Of a stretch of 40,816 nucleotides of DNA, positions 6,297 through 15,797 are shown in pieces. The notes under the pieces were generated by a model. That model saw nothing but the letters and a program-made list of their open reading frames with translations. It was not told the origin of the DNA and did not search any database. The translations under genes were made by a program, and so were the position numbers. Numbering within the stretch: the stretch's first letter is position 1; each line of letters begins with the position of its first letter. Origin of the DNA: a virus (taxonomy: Duplodnaviria; Caudoviricetes). The stretch is from positions 1 to 40,816 of the IMG/VR virus record IMGVR_UViG_3300043748_000042. One strand, 5' to 3'.

Positions 6297-6575
6297 TCAG
6301 GCGGCGAGCGGCTGCCGGCGCTTCGCGCGGCGCGGCTCGGGGGCCTGGCGGGTGGGGTCGAGCGTCAGGTTCGACCGGGAGTCCTTGGCCTCATCGGCTT
6401 CGAGCCATGCATCGAGAGCGGCCAGGCGGTACATCACACGACCACCCGACTTGAAGCTGGCCGGACCGCTCCGACGCTCGCGCAGGCAGCGCATCGCCTT
6501 GGGCGTTCGACGAACGTATTCGGCCGCCTCGATGAGGTTCAGGATCGGCGACTGGACGCCACTGTCCTTGCTCAT
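6297..6575 (-). CDS. Excisionase/recombination directionality factor-like HTH protein
   Basis: LNLIEAAEYV...GPASFKSGGRVMYRLAALDAWL; second gene of the early operon. Confidence 0.8.
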   Translation of the reverse strand: MSKDSGVQSPILNLIEAAEYVRRTPKAMRCLRERRSGPASFKSGGRVMYRLAALDAWLEADEAKDSRSNLTLDPTRQAPEPRRAKRRQPLAA

Positions 6576-6784
6576 TGTTTCCCCTCCGTTTCCTCTGTGA
6601 TGTCACTGATCGCGACGTTCAGCCCCAGTGCGATACGCATCAAAACCTCAGGCTGGGCGCCGCTCTGGTCTCGTTCAATCCGGGACAAGTGCGAGGACGA
6701 GATCCCGACTTGGGCAGCAAAGCGCCGCAGGCCGTAGCCCATCTGTTCGCGCTTGCTGCGGATGCTTGATCCCCGCGCTTGCAC
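6572..6784 (-). CDS. Cro-like XRE HTH regulator (probably leaderless GTG start at 6784)
   Basis: GLRRFAAQVGISSSHLSRIERD; divergent from the repressor. Confidence 0.85.
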   Translation of the reverse strand: MQARGSSIRSKREQMGYGLRRFAAQVGISSSHLSRIERDQSGAQPEVLMRIALGLNVAISDITEETEGKQ

Positions 6785-6846
6785 AGCACTGAAGCTAGAG
6801 GAATCAGAGAGGCAATGCAAGGCATCGAGAGGAATCAAGAGGAATC
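6785..6846 (-). promoter_or_regulatory. Early lytic promoter overlaid by phased operator repeats
   Basis: Minus strand TTGCAT-17 bp-TAGCTT-7 bp-GTG; GAGGAATC-like repeats at 6798, 6809, 6819, 6829, 6839. Confidence 0.65.
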
Positions 6847-6961
6847 AATGTGCCACTGGCGTGCATCTGGCGGGAACCGGCCTGCATCCAGATGCCTCTG
6901 GTCTGCGAGACTGTTGTCTATCGTTGCCTCTCGTTGGGCGTAGAGGCGCTACCGGACGGGG

Positions 6962-7525
6962 ATGGCCGTGCAGGACTGGGTGCATCTGGGCAAGTGCATC
7001 GCGCGCGATCGGAAACGGCGGCAGTGGCTCCAGTCCGACCTGGCTGAACGGGCCGGACTGGCCAAGCGCACCATCGGCAACTACGAGCGGGGCGTTGGTC
7101 GAGCTGCCGGATCCGAGGACATCCCCGCTGGCTACTACGCCGTTGCTGGCGCTCTCGGATGGCCTGCTGGCGCGGTTGAGCGCGCCCTGGCAGGCGTCGA
7201 GCCGACGATGTCATCGCATCGGGCCCCAGTCGACATGCTCGCCCCCGCACCGCTCGAGCCGGCCGAGCTTTTCCCTGCGGTGGGTCGTTTTGCCCGGGCT
7301 GCGGTTGCAGCGGGCGGCGATCCTGCGCTGCGGGACCTCCTAGAGGATGCCGCGGACCGGTTGCTGCAGTCGATCCCGAAGGGGGCGCCTGCCCAGTCGT
7401 CCTACGGGCTTGCCGCGTACAGGCCGCACGGCTGGGCGGAGGGCGACCCGAGCGTTCCAGCTGATGACGCCGCGCGGATTCGGCAGGCGCTGGAGGAGTA
7501 CACCCGCGAGCAGGGGAAGTCGTAA
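6962..7525 (+). CDS. Immunity repressor (XRE HTH, ImmR-like)
   Basis: LQSDLAERAGLAKRTIGNYERG; divergent from cro, upstream of ImmA-like gene and integrase. Confidence 0.8.
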   Translation: MAVQDWVHLGKCIARDRKRRQWLQSDLAERAGLAKRTIGNYERGVGRAAGSEDIPAGYYAVAGALGWPAGAVERALAGVEPTMSSHRAPVDMLAPAPLEPAELFPAVGRFARAAVAAGGDPALRDLLEDAADRLLQSIPKGAPAQSSYGLAAYRPHGWAEGDPSVPADDAARIRQALEEYTREQGKS

Positions 7526-7648
7526 CTCCCTGGCCTACCCACGACACGCGTGACTTAACGTGGCTAAATCCTCACGCTTCCCCGCCTGCATATGCCAGAA
7601 TCGGCGCACCGGCATGCCTCCCACACGTCAGGACTCAGGGGGAGAGGC

Positions 7649-8086
7649 ATGCCTGCAGTCGTCGGCGTTGTCGCCGCGGCACAGTACGACCCACACGCCG
7701 AGCTGGAGCGGATGGGCATACCCGTCGTCCGGCAGTGGCTGAGGGACACCTGGGGCGCGTGGTCCCCCGAGCATCGCGTCGTCATCCTCGCCCAGGGGCT
7801 CAGCCCGGTCGAGGAGCGGTGCGTCCTCGCGCACGAGATCGAGCACATCCTGGCTGGCGACGCTGGCTGCGGTGGCGTGGCCGGCCTGCGGGCCGAGCGC
7901 CTCGCCGACCTGCGGGCCGCCCGCAAGCTCATCGGGTTGTCCGACTTCTGTGCCGCCCGGCAGTGGGCCACGAGCCCGGCCGAGCTCGCCGCCGAGCTCG
8001 GCGTTACCGGCTGGATCCTGAAGACCCGCGCGGTCGACCTTGAGGGGGGTGCCCAGTGGCTGGGTACATCGAAGATCGCTGGCTGA
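7649..8086 (+). CDS. ImmA/IrrE-family metallopeptidase (putative anti-repressor)
   Basis: EERCVLAHEIEH zinc motif, E.LAD..AARKLI, LAAELGVT; GGAGAGG SD. Confidence 0.85.
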   Translation: MPAVVGVVAAAQYDPHAELERMGIPVVRQWLRDTWGAWSPEHRVVILAQGLSPVEERCVLAHEIEHILAGDAGCGGVAGLRAERLADLRAARKLIGLSDFCAARQWATSPAELAAELGVTGWILKTRAVDLEGGAQWLGTSKIAG

Positions 8087-9519
8087 CGAAGCGCCCGGAC
8101 CCGGAGACCGGGAAGCGCCGGAAGACGGACCTGTGGGGCAAGGGGAAGCGCTACAAGGTCGCCGGGATCCCCGGCGTGCGCGCCCGGTCGTTCGACTCCG
8201 CCAGCGACGCGAAGAAGTGGCTCGCCCAGGCCCAGACAGACGAGCGCCGTGCGGAGTTCGTCGACCCGCGGAATGGCGACATCCTGCTGACCGACTACAT
8301 CCAGAAGCACTTCTGGCCGGGCCGTACGGACAAGCTCACCACGTACACGGCCATGGAGAGCAAGGTCCGTAACCACATAGAGGGCCTGCCCATCGGGCAG
8401 CTGGCACTCAGGCGCATCGACGCAGCGGCCCTTCGGGAGTGGAAGAAGGAGTTGCTCACGCGGGTCGACACCTCGACCGCCGAGGTCATCTGGATCCACC
8501 TCAGCACCATCCTCAGCGCCGCCGTCGAGGACGGCCGGATCCTGAAGAACCCGTGCCGCGTGAACCGGAGCGTCAAGCCGCCCAAGAAGGCCGAGAAGAG
8601 GGCTCGGGCCTGGAAGCGGGAGACCGTCGACGCGATTCGCGACGCCGTCCAGGACCGGTACCGGATCGCCGTCGACCTCGGAGTCGGCGCCGGCCTACGC
8701 CAGGGCGAGGTACTTGGACTCAGCGCCGAGGACGTCGACTTCGACAAGGGCGTGATCCACATCCGCAGGCAGCTCCGCGCCTCGACGGCCGGCCAGTTCT
8801 ACTTCGCGCTCCCCAAGGGGGACAAGGTCCGTGAGGTGCCGCTGACACCGAACCTCGCGGCCCGCGTGAGGGCGCACATGGAGCGGTACCCGCCGACCCA
8901 GACAACGCTTCCGTGGTCGGACCCGACGCCTCCGAAGACCGAGCTGGAGGCGCGCCAGCGGAAGCCGGTCACGGTGCCGCTGCTGGTGACGACCAGCCAA
9001 GGGAACCGGGTCTACTACCGGACGTTCAACGACCGCACCTGGAAGCCCGCGCTCATGGCCGCCGGCCTCATCGCCAGGATCGAGCCCAAGACGCCGGAGG
9101 AGATCGCCCGACAGAAGCGACTGCGACGCTTCCGGTGGACGGACCCGCGGGAGCACGGTTTCCACGGCCTGCGCCACACCTACGCCAGCGTCCAGCTCGC
9201 GGAGAACGTCGACCCCGTGACGCTGTCGGTGTGGATGGGCCACAGCTCGCCGACGATCACCCTGGAGAGGTACGCTCACTTCATGCCGGGATCCGGCGCC
9301 CGCGGGCTCGCCGCGATGGACAGCTGGTTCGAGTCGGCAGAGGCCCCCAACACCCCCCGGATCGAAATTCTCCCTGGAGACTCCCTCGCGGTCGTCGAGG
9401 CCTCGTTGATCCTCGCTCAGCCACAGTTCAGAGCATCAGTCAGCAAGAATGCCGACATGAAGATCAAGTACAAGGAGACCTCGCGCGGCGGCCTCGCCGT
9501 GAACGTCATCGAGTGCTGA
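8056..9519 (+). CDS. int: Tyrosine integrase
   Basis: GLRQGEVLGL, PK, FHGLRHTYAS, MGHSSPTITLERYAH catalytic motifs. Confidence 0.95.
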   Translation: MAGYIEDRWLTKRPDPETGKRRKTDLWGKGKRYKVAGIPGVRARSFDSASDAKKWLAQAQTDERRAEFVDPRNGDILLTDYIQKHFWPGRTDKLTTYTAMESKVRNHIEGLPIGQLALRRIDAAALREWKKELLTRVDTSTAEVIWIHLSTILSAAVEDGRILKNPCRVNRSVKPPKKAEKRARAWKRETVDAIRDAVQDRYRIAVDLGVGAGLRQGEVLGLSAEDVDFDKGVIHIRRQLRASTAGQFYFALPKGDKVREVPLTPNLAARVRAHMERYPPTQTTLPWSDPTPPKTELEARQRKPVTVPLLVTTSQGNRVYYRTFNDRTWKPALMAAGLIARIEPKTPEEIARQKRLRRFRWTDPREHGFHGLRHTYASVQLAENVDPVTLSVWMGHSSPTITLERYAHFMPGSGARGLAAMDSWFESAEAPNTPRIEILPGDSLAVVEASLILAQPQFRASVSKNADMKIKYKETSRGGLAVNVIEC

Positions 9520-9637: not shown

Positions 9638-9655
9638 GCACGTCCTCATATGCGA

Positions 9656-9693
9656 GCCGCCCCATACCCTCCGCAAGGGGGGTATGGGGCGGC
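9656..9693 (+). terminator. Stem-loop downstream of int/attP
   Basis: 17-bp stem GCCGCCCCATACCCTCC/GGGGGGTATGGGGCGGC with GCAA tetraloop. Confidence 0.65.
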
Positions 9694-9815
9694 ATCAGGG
9701 CTCGGTAGGATTCCCGACAGCCTCCCACAGCATGAGGGTCTCCTACCGGCCCCGGAGGTCCCGCTCCTCAGCGCCCGGTGAAGACGGGCACTGGGGGGCG
9801 GGAAGCATGAGGCCC

Positions 9816-9841
9816 GGCCGGCCGCTGACAAGCGGCCGGCC
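9816..9841 (-). terminator. Stem-loop after the small peptide gene
   Basis: GGCCGGCCGCT-GACA-AGCGGCCGGCC, about 10 bp beyond the stop at 9851. Confidence 0.6.
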
Positions 9842-9850
9842 AGAGCTGTG

Positions 9851-10057
9851 TCAGCCCCAGACGGAGTCGTTGACGGTGACCGGCGCAGCGGTCGGGGTCG
9901 GCGTAGAAGCCGACTGCGGAGCGACGACGCCCCAGACCGAGTCGGCGATGCGCTGCGGCTGCGCGCTCGGCGCGGCTGCTGCGGCGAGCCCGGCGATGAG
10001 GGCGGCGCCAGCAATGATGCCGGCCAGGGCTCGGTGGGCGGTCCTGCGTGCGGGCAT
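9851..10057 (-). CDS. Small secreted pro-peptide with duplicated DSVWG motif
   Basis: AAGGGG SD; basic N-terminus, hydrophobic core and Ala-rich cleavage region; ADSVWG internal and NDSVWG C-terminal. Confidence 0.8.
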   Translation of the reverse strand: MPARRTAHRALAGIIAGAALIAGLAAAAAPSAQPQRIADSVWGVVAPQSASTPTPTAAPVTVNDSVWG

Positions 10058-10177
10058 GGGGCACCCCTTCGCTGCTGATGTGGTGGGTGGGTGAAACGGA
10101 GGCGTGAGTTCCTCGAAGGACCAGTGTTCGCATTGTTCGACGTTGAATCAACCCCTTCCGGGATAGACTTAAAAAGT

Positions 10178-10191
10178 TGCGCACGTGCGCA
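10178..10191. promoter_or_regulatory. Perfect 14-bp palindrome, candidate operator
   Basis: TGCGCACGTGCGCA in the AT-richer divergent intergenic region. Confidence 0.5.
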
Positions 10192-10222
10192 GTTCTGACA
10201 GGTCGCCATATGGGGTAAATCG

Positions 10223-11194
10223 GTGGAACCGGACACCAGTGAGGCTCGCCCGTTTCTCATACCGGAAGCAGTGGATCTCTATCTGAGGATCCTCTCCGGC
10301 GCCGAGACCAGCCCCCCGCCGAGCCCGGCGCGGGACCAGCTGATCAGCGTCGGGCTCGTTGCGCCCGATCCAGGCCGACCTGACCGCATGCAGGCGCTCG
10401 ACGTAGACGCAGCCGTCCGACAGTGGCAGGCATCCCTCGTCCAGGTCGCCGTCGGGATGCTCTCCGAGGCCCAGTCGGTCCCCGCTCAGCTCTCCGGGAT
10501 GGCGTCGGCCTACCGGGCAGCACACCCCGGCCGCAGCCTGACCCCCGGCGTCGAGGTGGTCACGGGGTTCCGCGCGATTAACGAGCGGCTGGAGACCCTC
10601 GTCAACGGCTGCACCCGCGAGCTCCTCACCGCTCAGCCGACCGGTCCTCGGCCGGCCGACCTCCTGGCGGTCTCGTACCAACGGGACCTCGGTGTGCTGA
10701 AGCGGGGAGCCACCATGCGCACGATCTACCTGCCAAGTGCGCGCGCTGACGGGCCGACGGCCCGATGGGCGCTGACCATGACCGAGCGGGGCGCGCAGAT
10801 CCGCACCGGCAGAACGTTCGGCCGGGCGATCGTGGTTGACCGACGCGTGGCAGTCGTGCCCGTGCTCGAACCCTGGAGCTCCACCGAGGTCGCGCCAGAC
10901 CGGGCGGCGGTAGTAACGGACGAGATCCTCGTCGCCCTCGTGTGCGGCTCCTTCGAACGAGACTGGACCCACTCCGAACCATGGGGAGGTGAGCAAGAGC
11001 CGGAGCTCCTCCCGGTCCACGTCGGGATCCTCTCGTGCCTGGCGCGCGGCATGGAGCAGGACGGGATAGCTGCTCAGCTCGAGGTGTCCCGCCGCACCGT
11101 CACCAGCCGCCTGGCGGAGCTGAAGACGATGGTCGGCGCGGCCACCGTGCCGCAGTTGCTGTACTGGTGGGCGAAGCGGGAGCTCCAGCGCTAG
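10223..11194 (+). CDS. LuxR-family regulator with TrmB-like/PLD-like sensor domain
   Basis: RGATMRTIY...GAQIRT....RAIVVDRRVAVVP...FERDW..SEPW followed by ILSCLARGMEQDGIAAQLEVSRRTV HTH. Confidence 0.85.
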   Translation: MEPDTSEARPFLIPEAVDLYLRILSGAETSPPPSPARDQLISVGLVAPDPGRPDRMQALDVDAAVRQWQASLVQVAVGMLSEAQSVPAQLSGMASAYRAAHPGRSLTPGVEVVTGFRAINERLETLVNGCTRELLTAQPTGPRPADLLAVSYQRDLGVLKRGATMRTIYLPSARADGPTARWALTMTERGAQIRTGRTFGRAIVVDRRVAVVPVLEPWSSTEVAPDRAAVVTDEILVALVCGSFERDWTHSEPWGGEQEPELLPVHVGILSCLARGMEQDGIAAQLEVSRRTVTSRLAELKTMVGAATVPQLLYWWAKRELQR

Positions 11195-11445
11195 TTCTGG
11201 CGGATCACGGCCACGTAGCGGGTCCCGCGAGAGGCAAAGCGGAGGCGGAACTCACCGTCCCGCTTCATGAAGTCGCGGACGCGCTCAAGGGCGCCCTCGG
11301 CTGTGATCATCCACAGGTAGGCAGAGAGCCGGTCGGGGTTGACCGGCGTGCGCCTCAAGGTCTTGGCCAGGGCGTCGACGGCGTCCTGGAGGGTGGCGTG
11401 CGTTGTCGGGTCGATCAAGCCCTCGATGGTGAGGGTGTAACTCAC
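11191..11445 (-). CDS. Hypothetical protein, paralog of the N-terminus of 12614-13123
   Basis: GGGAG SD; alignable by eye to the 169-aa protein. Confidence 0.7.
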   Translation of the reverse strand: MSYTLTIEGLIDPTTHATLQDAVDALAKTLRRTPVNPDRLSAYLWMITAEGALERVRDFMKRDGEFRLRFASRGTRYVAVIRQN

Positions 11446-11562
11446 GTGTGCTCCCGAATCCGATCCCCCCGGCTCCGGAAGGCCGATCCTATCGAACTAG
11501 TGGCCGATAAATGACCGCATACCGGTACAGACTTTTGATCATGGCGCCGTCAGCGTCAAGGG

Positions 11563-11802
11563 GTGCCTGCCCCGTACCAGCCCGATGACCAGCAGATCCG
11601 CGACCGCCGAGACTTAGGGACGCGGCTCCTTTCGCTCAGGCGGCAGGCCGGCCTCACCCAGGAGCGGCTCGGCGAGCGAGCAGGCCTGGACAGGCGAACG
11701 ATTGGCCGAATCGAGAACGGCCTCATTCCTGCCACCCTCGACCAGCTCAGCGCCATCGCGCGGGCGCTCCCGGTGCCGCTGTGGCGCCTGTTCCGCGAGT
11801 AG
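11563..11802 (+). CDS. XRE-family HTH regulator
   Basis: LRRQAGLTQERLGERAGLDRRTIGRIENG; contains an in-frame TTA at 11614. Confidence 0.85.
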   Translation: MPAPYQPDDQQIRDRRDLGTRLLSLRRQAGLTQERLGERAGLDRRTIGRIENGLIPATLDQLSAIARALPVPLWRLFRE

Positions 11803-13857: not shown

Positions 13858-15042
13858 TCAGACCGCCTTGGCCCACCGCGCGAACTGGAGCAGCTGCTCG
13901 TCTCGGCCGCGAGACAGCCGGACCATGGTGGCCAACTCCGCTCGCACCTGACCGTGTTCACGAACATGCTGGGGCGCGATCTGGCGCGCTACCAGCAGCG
14001 ACTCCTTCGCGTGCTGCGGCTTCCCCAGGGTCATCTGGGCCCGGCCGAGGTCGATGTAGTAGTGCGACCGCCGTTCTGCGGGAAGATCCCGCGGTGGCGC
14101 CCACCGGGCCGCTGCGTCTACCGCGTCTCGGAGATCCTGCGGCTCGCCGACCTCGACCGCCACCGAGAGCCGGTGGATCTCCAGCGAGTCCGGTCCAACC
14201 GCGGTCCCGTCGTACAGCCCCTCCCGGACGCGTCGGGACAGCACCTCGGCGTCCCGAAGGTGCTCCCGGGCCTCGTCCGGGCGCCGCATCCGTCCAGCTG
14301 CGACTGCTGCCCGCATGTGAAGCGCCGCAGCCGCAGCGGCAAGCGGCTCCGTCGTCGGCGCCGGCATCCGGTCGACTGCGGCCCGGAGCGACCGCAGACC
14401 AGGATCGAGCTGGCCCGCGGAGAAGAACGTCTCCATGCGGACGTAGGCGGCAGCAGCTTCCAGCGCCGGGTCGCCGGTGAGTCCCGCCGCCCACCGCATC
14501 AACTCGACCAGGCGGGCGCTCAGGTCCCGGTAGCCGTACTTGTAGGCCACCGCGTCCGCCGACCTGATCGCCAGCGCGAGAAGGCGAGCGGCCTGTTCGC
14601 GGTCGGCTCCCCGGGCCTGGTCGATGGCGCGGAACAGCTCCGCCAGCAACCGCGGCATCTGCTCGGCGAGGCGCGCGTACTGCGACTGCACACGATCCTC
14701 GACTGCCCGCTCGACGTCCGCCGCGAGGAGCGGCATCGGCCGGACCAGGCCGTCCTCCGGAAGGTCGTACGCGGCGATCACACGCTGCAGGTTGGGGATG
14801 GCCTCGTGTACCCGACTGTCGGTCCGCCCTGGGCCGTCCAGCAGATCCTCCGGGGCACGACCGAGAGCGCGGGCCAGCGCTTCCAGGACGCCATCGCCTG
14901 GCCAGCGTTCGGCGCGCTCGACCTTGCGGATCGTGCTGTACGAGACGCCGGACAGCTCCTCCAGCTGGCGACGCGTCAACCTAGCGGATAGGCGGGCGGT
15001 TTCAATTCGCTGACCGAGTGCGGCAGCGGTGGTTCCGGGCAT
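13858..15042 (-). CDS. XRE HTH regulator with long helical/TPR-like C-terminal domain
   Basis: LTRRQLEELSGVSYSTIRKVER; ERRSHYYIDLGRAQ...ARQIAPQHVR. Confidence 0.85.
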   Translation of the reverse strand: MPGTTAAALGQRIETARLSARLTRRQLEELSGVSYSTIRKVERAERWPGDGVLEALARALGRAPEDLLDGPGRTDSRVHEAIPNLQRVIAAYDLPEDGLVRPMPLLAADVERAVEDRVQSQYARLAEQMPRLLAELFRAIDQARGADREQAARLLALAIRSADAVAYKYGYRDLSARLVELMRWAAGLTGDPALEAAAAYVRMETFFSAGQLDPGLRSLRAAVDRMPAPTTEPLAAAAAALHMRAAVAAGRMRRPDEAREHLRDAEVLSRRVREGLYDGTAVGPDSLEIHRLSVAVEVGEPQDLRDAVDAAARWAPPRDLPAERRSHYYIDLGRAQMTLGKPQHAKESLLVARQIAPQHVREHGQVRAELATMVRLSRGRDEQLLQFARWAKAV

Positions 15043-15104
15043 AGGGTGGCTCCGTTCCGTGGTCGCACTCGGAACGGTACCGGCGCCCACGCGGGAGCCG
15101 GGAC

Positions 15105-15139
15105 GATTCGCCCCGACGGTCACGCCGTCGGGGCGAATC
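15105..15139. terminator. Perfect 15-bp stem-loop after the HAD gene
   Basis: GATTCGCCCCGACGG-TCACG-CCGTCGGGGCGAATC. Confidence 0.6.
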
Positions 15140-15142
15140 CTG

Positions 15143-15769
15143 CTATTGGCCGGCGAGCAGTTCGGCCAGCTCGGTCAGCGAGGTCACGGTCCAGTCCGCA
15201 GTGGGTGCGGTCGACGTGAGACCGATCGGGCCGCGGCGAAGATGCGCGGCCCGGAGGCCAGCGGCCTGGGCGGGCGCCACGTCGTTTGCCGGGTGGTCGC
15301 CGACGTACACCATCTCGTGAGGCTTACCTGGCGCCCACGCTGTCACCCGCTCGAAGAAGTCGGCGCTCGGCTTGGACACCCCCCACTCGCCAGACGTAGC
15401 GATGGCGTCGGCCGGCAGGTTGAGCCTGCGCAGCAGCTCGGACACCCCCGAGTTCTGGTTGCCTGCGATCCCGACCCACAGCCCGGCCGCCCGCAGTCTG
15501 GCCAGTGCGGGGCGCACGTCCGAGTAGAGGTCCGACTCCTCGAGGTGGTCCCCCTGGCCGGCGGCCTCCCGGGCCCGCCACTCTGCGGCCACGTCCACGT
15601 CCGGCCGGGCGATCCGGATCGCGTCTGCGTTGTCGCGGCCCTGGGCAAGTACGGCCCCCACCAGGGCCGACATCGTGTGTGTTGGGACGCCGAGCCACCG
15701 GGCCCAGTCGCCCCAGTAGCGGGTGTCGCTGGTCAGGGTCTCGCCGATGTCGAACACCACAGAGCGCAT
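15143..15769 (-). CDS. HAD-superfamily hydrolase (probably leaderless)
   Basis: VVFDIGETL, KP, YVGDHPANDV motifs; TAGGCT 7 nt upstream of ATG. Confidence 0.9.
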   Translation of the reverse strand: MRSVVFDIGETLTSDTRYWGDWARWLGVPTHTMSALVGAVLAQGRDNADAIRIARPDVDVAAEWRAREAAGQGDHLEESDLYSDVRPALARLRAAGLWVGIAGNQNSGVSELLRRLNLPADAIATSGEWGVSKPSADFFERVTAWAPGKPHEMVYVGDHPANDVAPAQAAGLRAAHLRRGPIGLTSTAPTADWTVTSLTELAELLAGQ

Positions 15770-15797
15770 GGAGTTGAGCCTAGAGGACACGGCGAAG

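Follow-up and report, generated by a model that had tools for sequence, protein, structure and literature searches.

The question raised by this locus was whether a temperate phage of Actinomycetota carries a peptide communication system of its own, as an earlier note on the same DNA had proposed. Known peptide-based phage communication belongs to Bacillota and relies on TPR receptors. The window, that is, the whole stretch of 40,816 bases that was analysed, is a single virus record with genes for terminase, portal, capsid, tail and endolysin, and it also encodes an integrase, an excisionase, Cro-like and repressor HTH genes and an IrrE/ImmA-like peptidase; judged by these genes, it is a temperate tailed phage. 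The host genus is likely Kitasatospora, a relative of Streptomyces, because the closest named homologues of the phage's regulator came nearly all from Kitasatospora. The locus itself consists of a small gene and a divergent regulator gene, the start codons of which lie 165 nt apart:

9851..10057, minus strand: propeptide gene, 68 aa, with a signal-peptide-like N-terminus, two DSVWG cores and a Pro/Thr spacer
9929..9943, minus strand: first DSVWG core
9854..9868, minus strand: second DSVWG core, the last five residues of the ORF
10223..11194, plus strand: regulator, 323 aa, with a shortened winged-helix part, a long helix, a phospholipase-D-like (PLD-like) domain lacking the catalytic His and a LuxR-type HTH

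The coordinates and reading that had been proposed for the small ORF, its two cores and its spacer were confirmed. Its N-terminus was basic, followed by a hydrophobic stretch, and the visible n- and h-region kept their character among relatives; this much of the proposed Sec-type signal peptide stood, the call itself being a reading of the sequence together with a crude hydrophobicity rule. A Tat signal was set aside, as the twin Arg was not conserved. The propeptide matched no family in Pfam, NCBIfam or PHROG, and among the atlas clusters it matched only unnamed ones, under 0.9. A repeated W-containing 5-mer appeared in 60 of 100,000 shuffles of ORF 9851-10057, and repetition of DSVWG by chance is unlikely. 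Because the core codons varied silently among relatives, the leaders and spacers of 11 prophage relatives had drifted (down to 21-62% identity to the window) and repeats within an ORF stayed identical (31 of 36 multi-core ORFs), selection evidently keeps the core as a peptide. The cores were identical to those of the window in the five closest of these 11 relatives and changed stepwise farther out; altogether 61 distinct core sequences were counted, tandem amplification reached nine copies in a chromosomal propeptide, and DSVWG itself was found in prophage loci only. On these comparisons, the core pattern looks like that expected of a diversifying signal. A signal-peptidase-like [ASV]-x-A motif stood immediately before the first Asp in 62 of 139 propeptides, and in the propeptide of the window about ten residues would need trimming ahead of the first core.

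The earlier proposal turned on conserved linkage between peptide and regulator, and such linkage was found. An ORF combining a signal with D-x(2,3)-W lay within 1 kb of 150 of the 205 distinct regulators, on the opposite strand in 146 of the 150, according to a detector written after the sequences had been seen; 68 of the 150 linked loci were of the Nocardioides type, probably orthologues, and so not independent. The detector gave 17 matches in 1,082,424 bases of control DNA (0.03 per 2 kb). No peptide ORF was detected within 1 kb of the remaining 55 of the 205 regulators. With the detector fixed, 4 of 27 held-out loci scored, two of those four probably falsely, and re-reading by eye revealed three missed peptides among the 27; no peptide was seen alongside the most distant regulators (10 of the 12 lowest-scoring loci re-read). 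Since few held-out loci scored and the most distant ones carried no peptide, the regulator fold is not always peptide-linked.

In the reverse direction, all nine IMG/VR loci retrieved by the tandem peptide DNA pattern alone carried a divergent regulator, and all ten Kitasatospora loci from GTDB had a divergent ORF with two DS[V/T/S]WG cores, three of the ten being contigs of one genome with the same peptide. Phage Chymera, the sole phage matched among 50,697 records (two records, one phage), has two copies of DPGWG (peptide gp30) in the corresponding slot, flanked by integrase and XRE gene, with a regulator (gp29) of 28% identity, and pSAM1 carries DTAWG three times in the same arrangement with a regulator; the locus tags of pSAM1 did not occur in 12 of the 21 supplementary files of PMC11302927. 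Matches occurred in 96 plasmid records, and among the four plasmid loci that were opened, the peptide was present in two and absent from the other two. When IMG/VR was scanned, neither the single regulator nor alignment A2 returned a relative, and alignment A3 returned one. The peptide ORF and the regulator are therefore a real conserved pair, linked far above chance. That they are chance neighbours, or that the ORF is spurious, would suit a short ORF without a Pfam, NCBIfam or PHROG match, but is refuted by the conservation pattern (linkage, core selection, reverse test and shuffle test), and we give this reading practically no credence.

At the sequence level, nothing beyond a weak match to GerE, below the cut-off (E 9e-4), was obtained for the regulator. 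Its AF2 model (pLDDT 88) was predicted to consist of a shortened winged helix, a long helix, an alpha/beta domain and a four-helix HTH; the best match of the model was archaeal TrmBL2 (Foldseek E 2e-11; Z 17.3), the middle domain matched PLD-family nucleases (NucT: Z 17.0, rmsd 2.0) and the C-terminal HTH matched GerE (Z 11.6, rmsd 1.4). Because the model matches TrmBL2 and GerE, the original label of a TrmB/LuxR regulator is valid at the level of the fold. Pfam searches of 142 regulator homologues found PF00196 in 110, TrmB in 9 and Regulator_TrmB in 4. No TPR repeats were present in the regulator model, every part of which was assigned to another fold, and the TPR family was absent among 25 of the 28 families listed for the 142 homologues; the suggestion that the receptor fold differs from that of RRNPP/TPR proteins thus agreed with the predicted PLD-like alpha/beta domain and HTH. 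An apparent split of three regulators proved to be a long linker running through in a single frame and not a frameshift.

Active phospholipase D and Nuc nucleases carry an HxKxxxxD motif. The regulator differs from them in that its His is absent, in the aligned homologues as well, and the degenerate motif, placed by spacing, reads F199-x-R201-xxxx-D206. Because another residue stands in place of the catalytic His, with R201 and D206 conserved (in 96-97% of 74 peptide-linked regulators), the PLD-like domain would suit a binding pocket; 26 regulators for which no peptide was detected conserve the pocket residues to the same degree. Docking of the peptide into the regulator, which the earlier note had suggested as a check, lent weak support to the predicted binding: a complex of the regulator dimer with propeptide residues 36-68 scored 0.34, against 0.00 for the best control, in a job unlike the calibration set, in which 116 of 157 solved pairs and 2 of 215 mismatched ones attained the mark and passes at 0.60 or under comprised 18 of the 157 solved pairs and both passing mismatches. 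Contact agreement between runs was at least 57%, and partner pLDDT at least 43. Co-variation of peptide and receptor, suggested alongside docking, was not detectable at the level of residue columns, where 65 pairs, uncorrected for kinship, lay at or barely above the shuffle null.

A weak predicted contact would also be accounted for if the small protein were a partner retained in the envelope; acting as an anti-activator, or sensing secretion or envelope stress, it would contact the regulator through its Trp motifs ahead of export or upon failure of export. Such a partner would explain the tight linkage and the repeated conserved cores and would need no uptake, and the last core lay within two residues of the C-terminus in only 65 of 139 propeptides; on the other hand, 61 different cores, the concerted change of repeats and up to nine tandem copies suit a dosed and specific signal, and we regard retention in the envelope as quite unlikely. 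The identical repeated cores likewise resemble multi-core precursors of modified or antimicrobial peptides (RiPP- or bacteriocin-like), with the regulator merely controlling expression, and nine GDSTW repeats occur in one chromosomal cluster, close to a gene of the pyridoxamine-phosphate-oxidase-like kind. However, a modifying enzyme, a transporter and an immunity gene are absent from the window, and none was recognised among the prophage loci that were read. The core, of five residues, is acidic, and the N-terminus resembles a Sec signal rather than a leader. The lack of an adjacent modifying enzyme, to which the earlier note had already pointed, held for the window genes scanned, and a precursor of this kind is very improbable. 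A peptide signal with an intracellular receptor is the reading that we favour, and we consider it reasonably likely.

In TrmB biology the ligand is a sugar. The winged-helix part, long helix and PLD-like domain of the modelled regulator align to TrmB/TrmBL2 of archaea (5bpd, 3qph/2f5t), at 12-15% identity; the N-terminal HTH is apparently shortened here, an extra LuxR HTH is present, and the proposed ligand is a peptide, whereas the title of 2f5t names a sugar-binding domain. LuxR-type quorum-sensing receptors, phage VqmA included, resemble the regulator in the C-terminal GerE/LuxR HTH (Z 11.2-11.6 to 1fse, 1h0m and 7dwm) and in an inverted repeat in the divergent promoter, but the sensor here is of the PLD/TrmB fold and not an autoinducer-binding or PAS domain, and a synthase gene is lacking. 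Arbitrium, the AimP/AimR/AimX system of SPbeta-like Bacillus phages, is similar in that a small propeptide (of the Sec type in arbitrium, with a putative signal of that type here) is encoded beside an intracellular transcription factor in a temperate phage, near lysogeny genes and with many peptide variants. It differs in that the receptor here is TrmB/PLD-like with a C-terminal LuxR HTH instead of TPRs, the two genes point away from each other, the host belongs to Actinomycetota and chromosomes often carry the same pairs. In arbitrium, AimP binds AimR to repress aimX (PMC13220667, available part), and no equivalent of aimX was identified here.

The RRNPP signature comprises a propeptide of 10-100 aa, a signal-like N-terminus, a receptor of 250-500 aa, adjacent genes and TPRs, and signals in actinobacteria are typically small molecules made by enzymes (both from the available part of PMC10075063). 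Four of the five traits were found here: a propeptide of 68 aa, a receptor of 323 aa, 165 nt between the starts and, by sequence reading, a signal-like N-terminus. The defining TPRs were lacking, and the pair is therefore not a member of RRNPP (Rap-Phr, NprR-NprX, PlcR-PapR, Rgg-SHP, PrgX); by analogy, it may work like an RRNPP system. No description of the pair was found in open-licence PMC papers and bioRxiv, as far as their available text extends, and the pair is apparently an undescribed family built from parts unrelated to arbitrium.

The surroundings of the pair bear on what such a signal could control in the phage, and on its left they include the following:

6297..8086, no strand assigned: immunity region with excisionase, Cro-like HTH, HTH repressor and IrrE/ImmA-like peptidase, just left of the peptide-regulator pair
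8056..9519, plus strand: tyrosine integrase, by family and PHROG matches
9451..9519, plus strand: attachment core, in frame within the 3' end of the integrase gene and a copy of the 3' end of the host gene for L-serine dehydratase

The pair thus adjoins attP and the immunity cassette, as had been noted before. The attachment core has its match at the border of prophage L007 (L007 6218-6286), in the 3' end of a serine dehydratase gene, and soil contigs in four of four runs departed from the window sequence at its two ends (9451 and 9519). Through the in-frame core, the integrase C-terminus is the last 22 residues of the host L-serine dehydratase, and a related integrase in L012 (4006-4027, 6280-6346) also ends in the C-terminus of another small host gene. 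A sigma-70 scan of the window found no promoter, as expected for this host group. Farther right, the window encodes an XRE and TPR-like regulator (13858-15123; PHROG 5823) of RRNPP-like build, of which Chymera has one by position; a small secreted ORF was looked for beside it and none was found. A HAD-family hydrolase (15143-15790) lies between this TPR regulator and the lysis genes and is common to L009 and L266.

Between the two genes of the pair and to the right of the regulator, four further features were recognised:

10177..10192, no strand assigned: 16-bp inverted repeat between the peptide and regulator genes, candidate operator of the regulator
11191..11445, minus strand: 84-aa gene, convergent on the regulator gene with overlapping stops; confident model
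11492..11507, no strand assigned: LexA box of Streptomyces, matched in full; a -10-like hexamer directed at the 84-aa gene (11486-11491) abuts it
11563..11802, plus strand: XRE/HTH_3 gene, 79 aa, conserved beside the pair and present also in prophages without it

The inverted repeat was unique in the window at up to two mismatches, with none in the immunity region, and in 10 of 12 prophage loci a pattern written after inspection of the alignment found a similar repeat 29-58 nt ahead of the aligned start of the regulator gene. We infer from this placement that it is the operator of the regulator and that the pair regulates itself; the regulator would act there in feedback on the pair's own promoters. 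The 84-aa protein had homologues in eight of nine loci tested and a model pLDDT of 96, with no family match and no Foldseek match, and it is a candidate for an SOS-induced effector. The LexA box upstream of its gene is one of two full matches in the window to the S. venezuelae consensus tCGAAC-N4-GNNCGa (PMC9380542, available part); its left half aligned in 10 of 12 loci, and at that place 4 of 14 prophage loci showed the full box. Between the regulator gene and the 84-aa gene, no hairpin exceeds in strength those within coding sequence. DNA damage could therefore drive an antisense transcript through the regulator gene into the peptide gene, with transcription of the regulator opposing it, as the arrangement of the genes suggests.

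Downstream of the peptide stop, the DNA was rich in hairpins:

9814..9843, minus strand: hairpin directly after the peptide stop, likely terminator, no U-tract; z -3.8
9652..9804, no strand assigned: further conserved hairpins with compensatory changes, the first also in a prophage without the pair

The hairpin terminator that had been assigned to the peptide gene was upheld as a stable hairpin, equalled in stability by 1 of 200 shuffles, and qualified in that a U-tract is absent. Over 9652-9843 there were three to four hairpins, with compensatory changes in 11 of 30 pairs (0 of 500 shuffles), the scored structure having come from the very same alignment. They matched no Rfam family (best E 0.25) and may be tandem terminators or an unknown RNA. 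They were rejected as an aimX-like RNA of the system because one of them occurs in a prophage without the pair.

The earlier note had treated the pair as a phage system, and this had to be corrected, as most pairs found were chromosomal and related temperate phages lacked the pair in that slot. The regulator was matched at E 1e-40 or better in 74 of 121 sampled genomes of the host family, and at 1e-30 in 14 of 151 genomes across the phylum. Kitasatospora genomes hold about ten or more full-length regulator paralogues each, many with Trp peptides of their own, and several chromosomal regulators adjoin biosynthetic genes (radical SAM, thioesterase, aminotransferase). Of the Nocardioides-type loci (L016-L085), 68 of 69 distinct ones had a regulator with a convergent peptide gene, the cores differing from genome to genome, and in other chromosomal clusters (L096-L106, L120-L141, L158) two to six tandem regulator paralogues apparently share one convergent peptide gene. 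A chromosomal propeptide with nine DSTW (GDSTW) repeats (L229 2609-2953) and one with four EPSWE repeats (L240 2604-2855) each stand beside at least one regulator and a pyridoxamine-phosphate-oxidase-like gene; L240, read by eye, apparently also adjoins dnaJ- and hspR-like genes.

Phage mu1/6 and prophage L266 have the same XRE gene beside att without the pair in that slot, and the pair is therefore dispensable for the temperate life cycle. In L266 (10100-10940), the hairpins, a LexA-like half site and the XRE gene are kept where the pair is missing, and a short Pro/Thr-rich frame may be the remnant of a deleted peptide gene. This distribution would fit a host-type signalling cassette carried as cargo, by which the phage joins, jams or manipulates the chromosomal peptide-regulator network of its host (development, antibiotic clusters) without steering its own cycle. 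The many paralogues with Trp peptides, the biosynthetic neighbours, the accessory slot beside att and the lack of a second operator in the phage all speak for such cargo. The tree, however, built from 153 of the 205 regulators with the Nocardioides type thinned to one in four, placed the window regulator in a clade of 20 tips (support 0.989), 18 of which have a divergent multi-core peptide. All 20 members show mobile-element markers, L009 and L013 by shared accessory genes only, and six 20-kb regions around regulators outside the clade gave no match to window proteins. Copies on mobile elements thus form a supported clade of their own with a distinct layout (divergent, tandem cores), and the restriction of DSVWG to prophage loci fits a private channel better than mimicry; we judge the cargo explanation unlikely.

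If the pair is a peptide signal and its receptor, the small protein would be exported by Sec and trimmed by signal peptidase and host peptidases to pentapeptides of the DSVWG type, which would re-enter cells via the host oligopeptide transporter and bind the PLD-like domain of the regulator, altering transcription according to the number of nearby cells that carry or make the phage. The output in the phage would most likely be indirect, with the rightward regulator transcript crossing the 84-aa gene, which is likely DNA-damage-inducible, in antisense and continuing into the XRE gene. Because of this course of the transcript, the signal would tune prophage induction rather than form the core switch. 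That the pair has any effect on lysis-lysogeny or induction seems to us possible and somewhat doubtful; its place in the genome and the SOS box hint at one, and related phages do without the pair.

More broadly, and only tentatively, we propose an overlooked actinobacterial family of peptide quorum sensing, parallel to RRNPP, with D-x-x-W peptides and TrmB/PLD-LuxR receptors. One branch, in phages, phage-plasmids and integrative elements, would be an independent arbitrium wired to SOS by convergent transcription, and chromosomal branches would control antibiotic clusters. The predicted signals are cheap pentapeptides, and the laboratory host of phage Chymera is Streptomyces venezuelae. If the proposal is true, this would be a second phage communication system with an unrelated receptor fold, so that communication would have arisen at least twice, and Actinomycetota would gain a class of peptide signalling. 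As biosynthetic genes adjoin the chromosomal members, it might also be possible to activate silent antibiotic clusters with synthetic cores.
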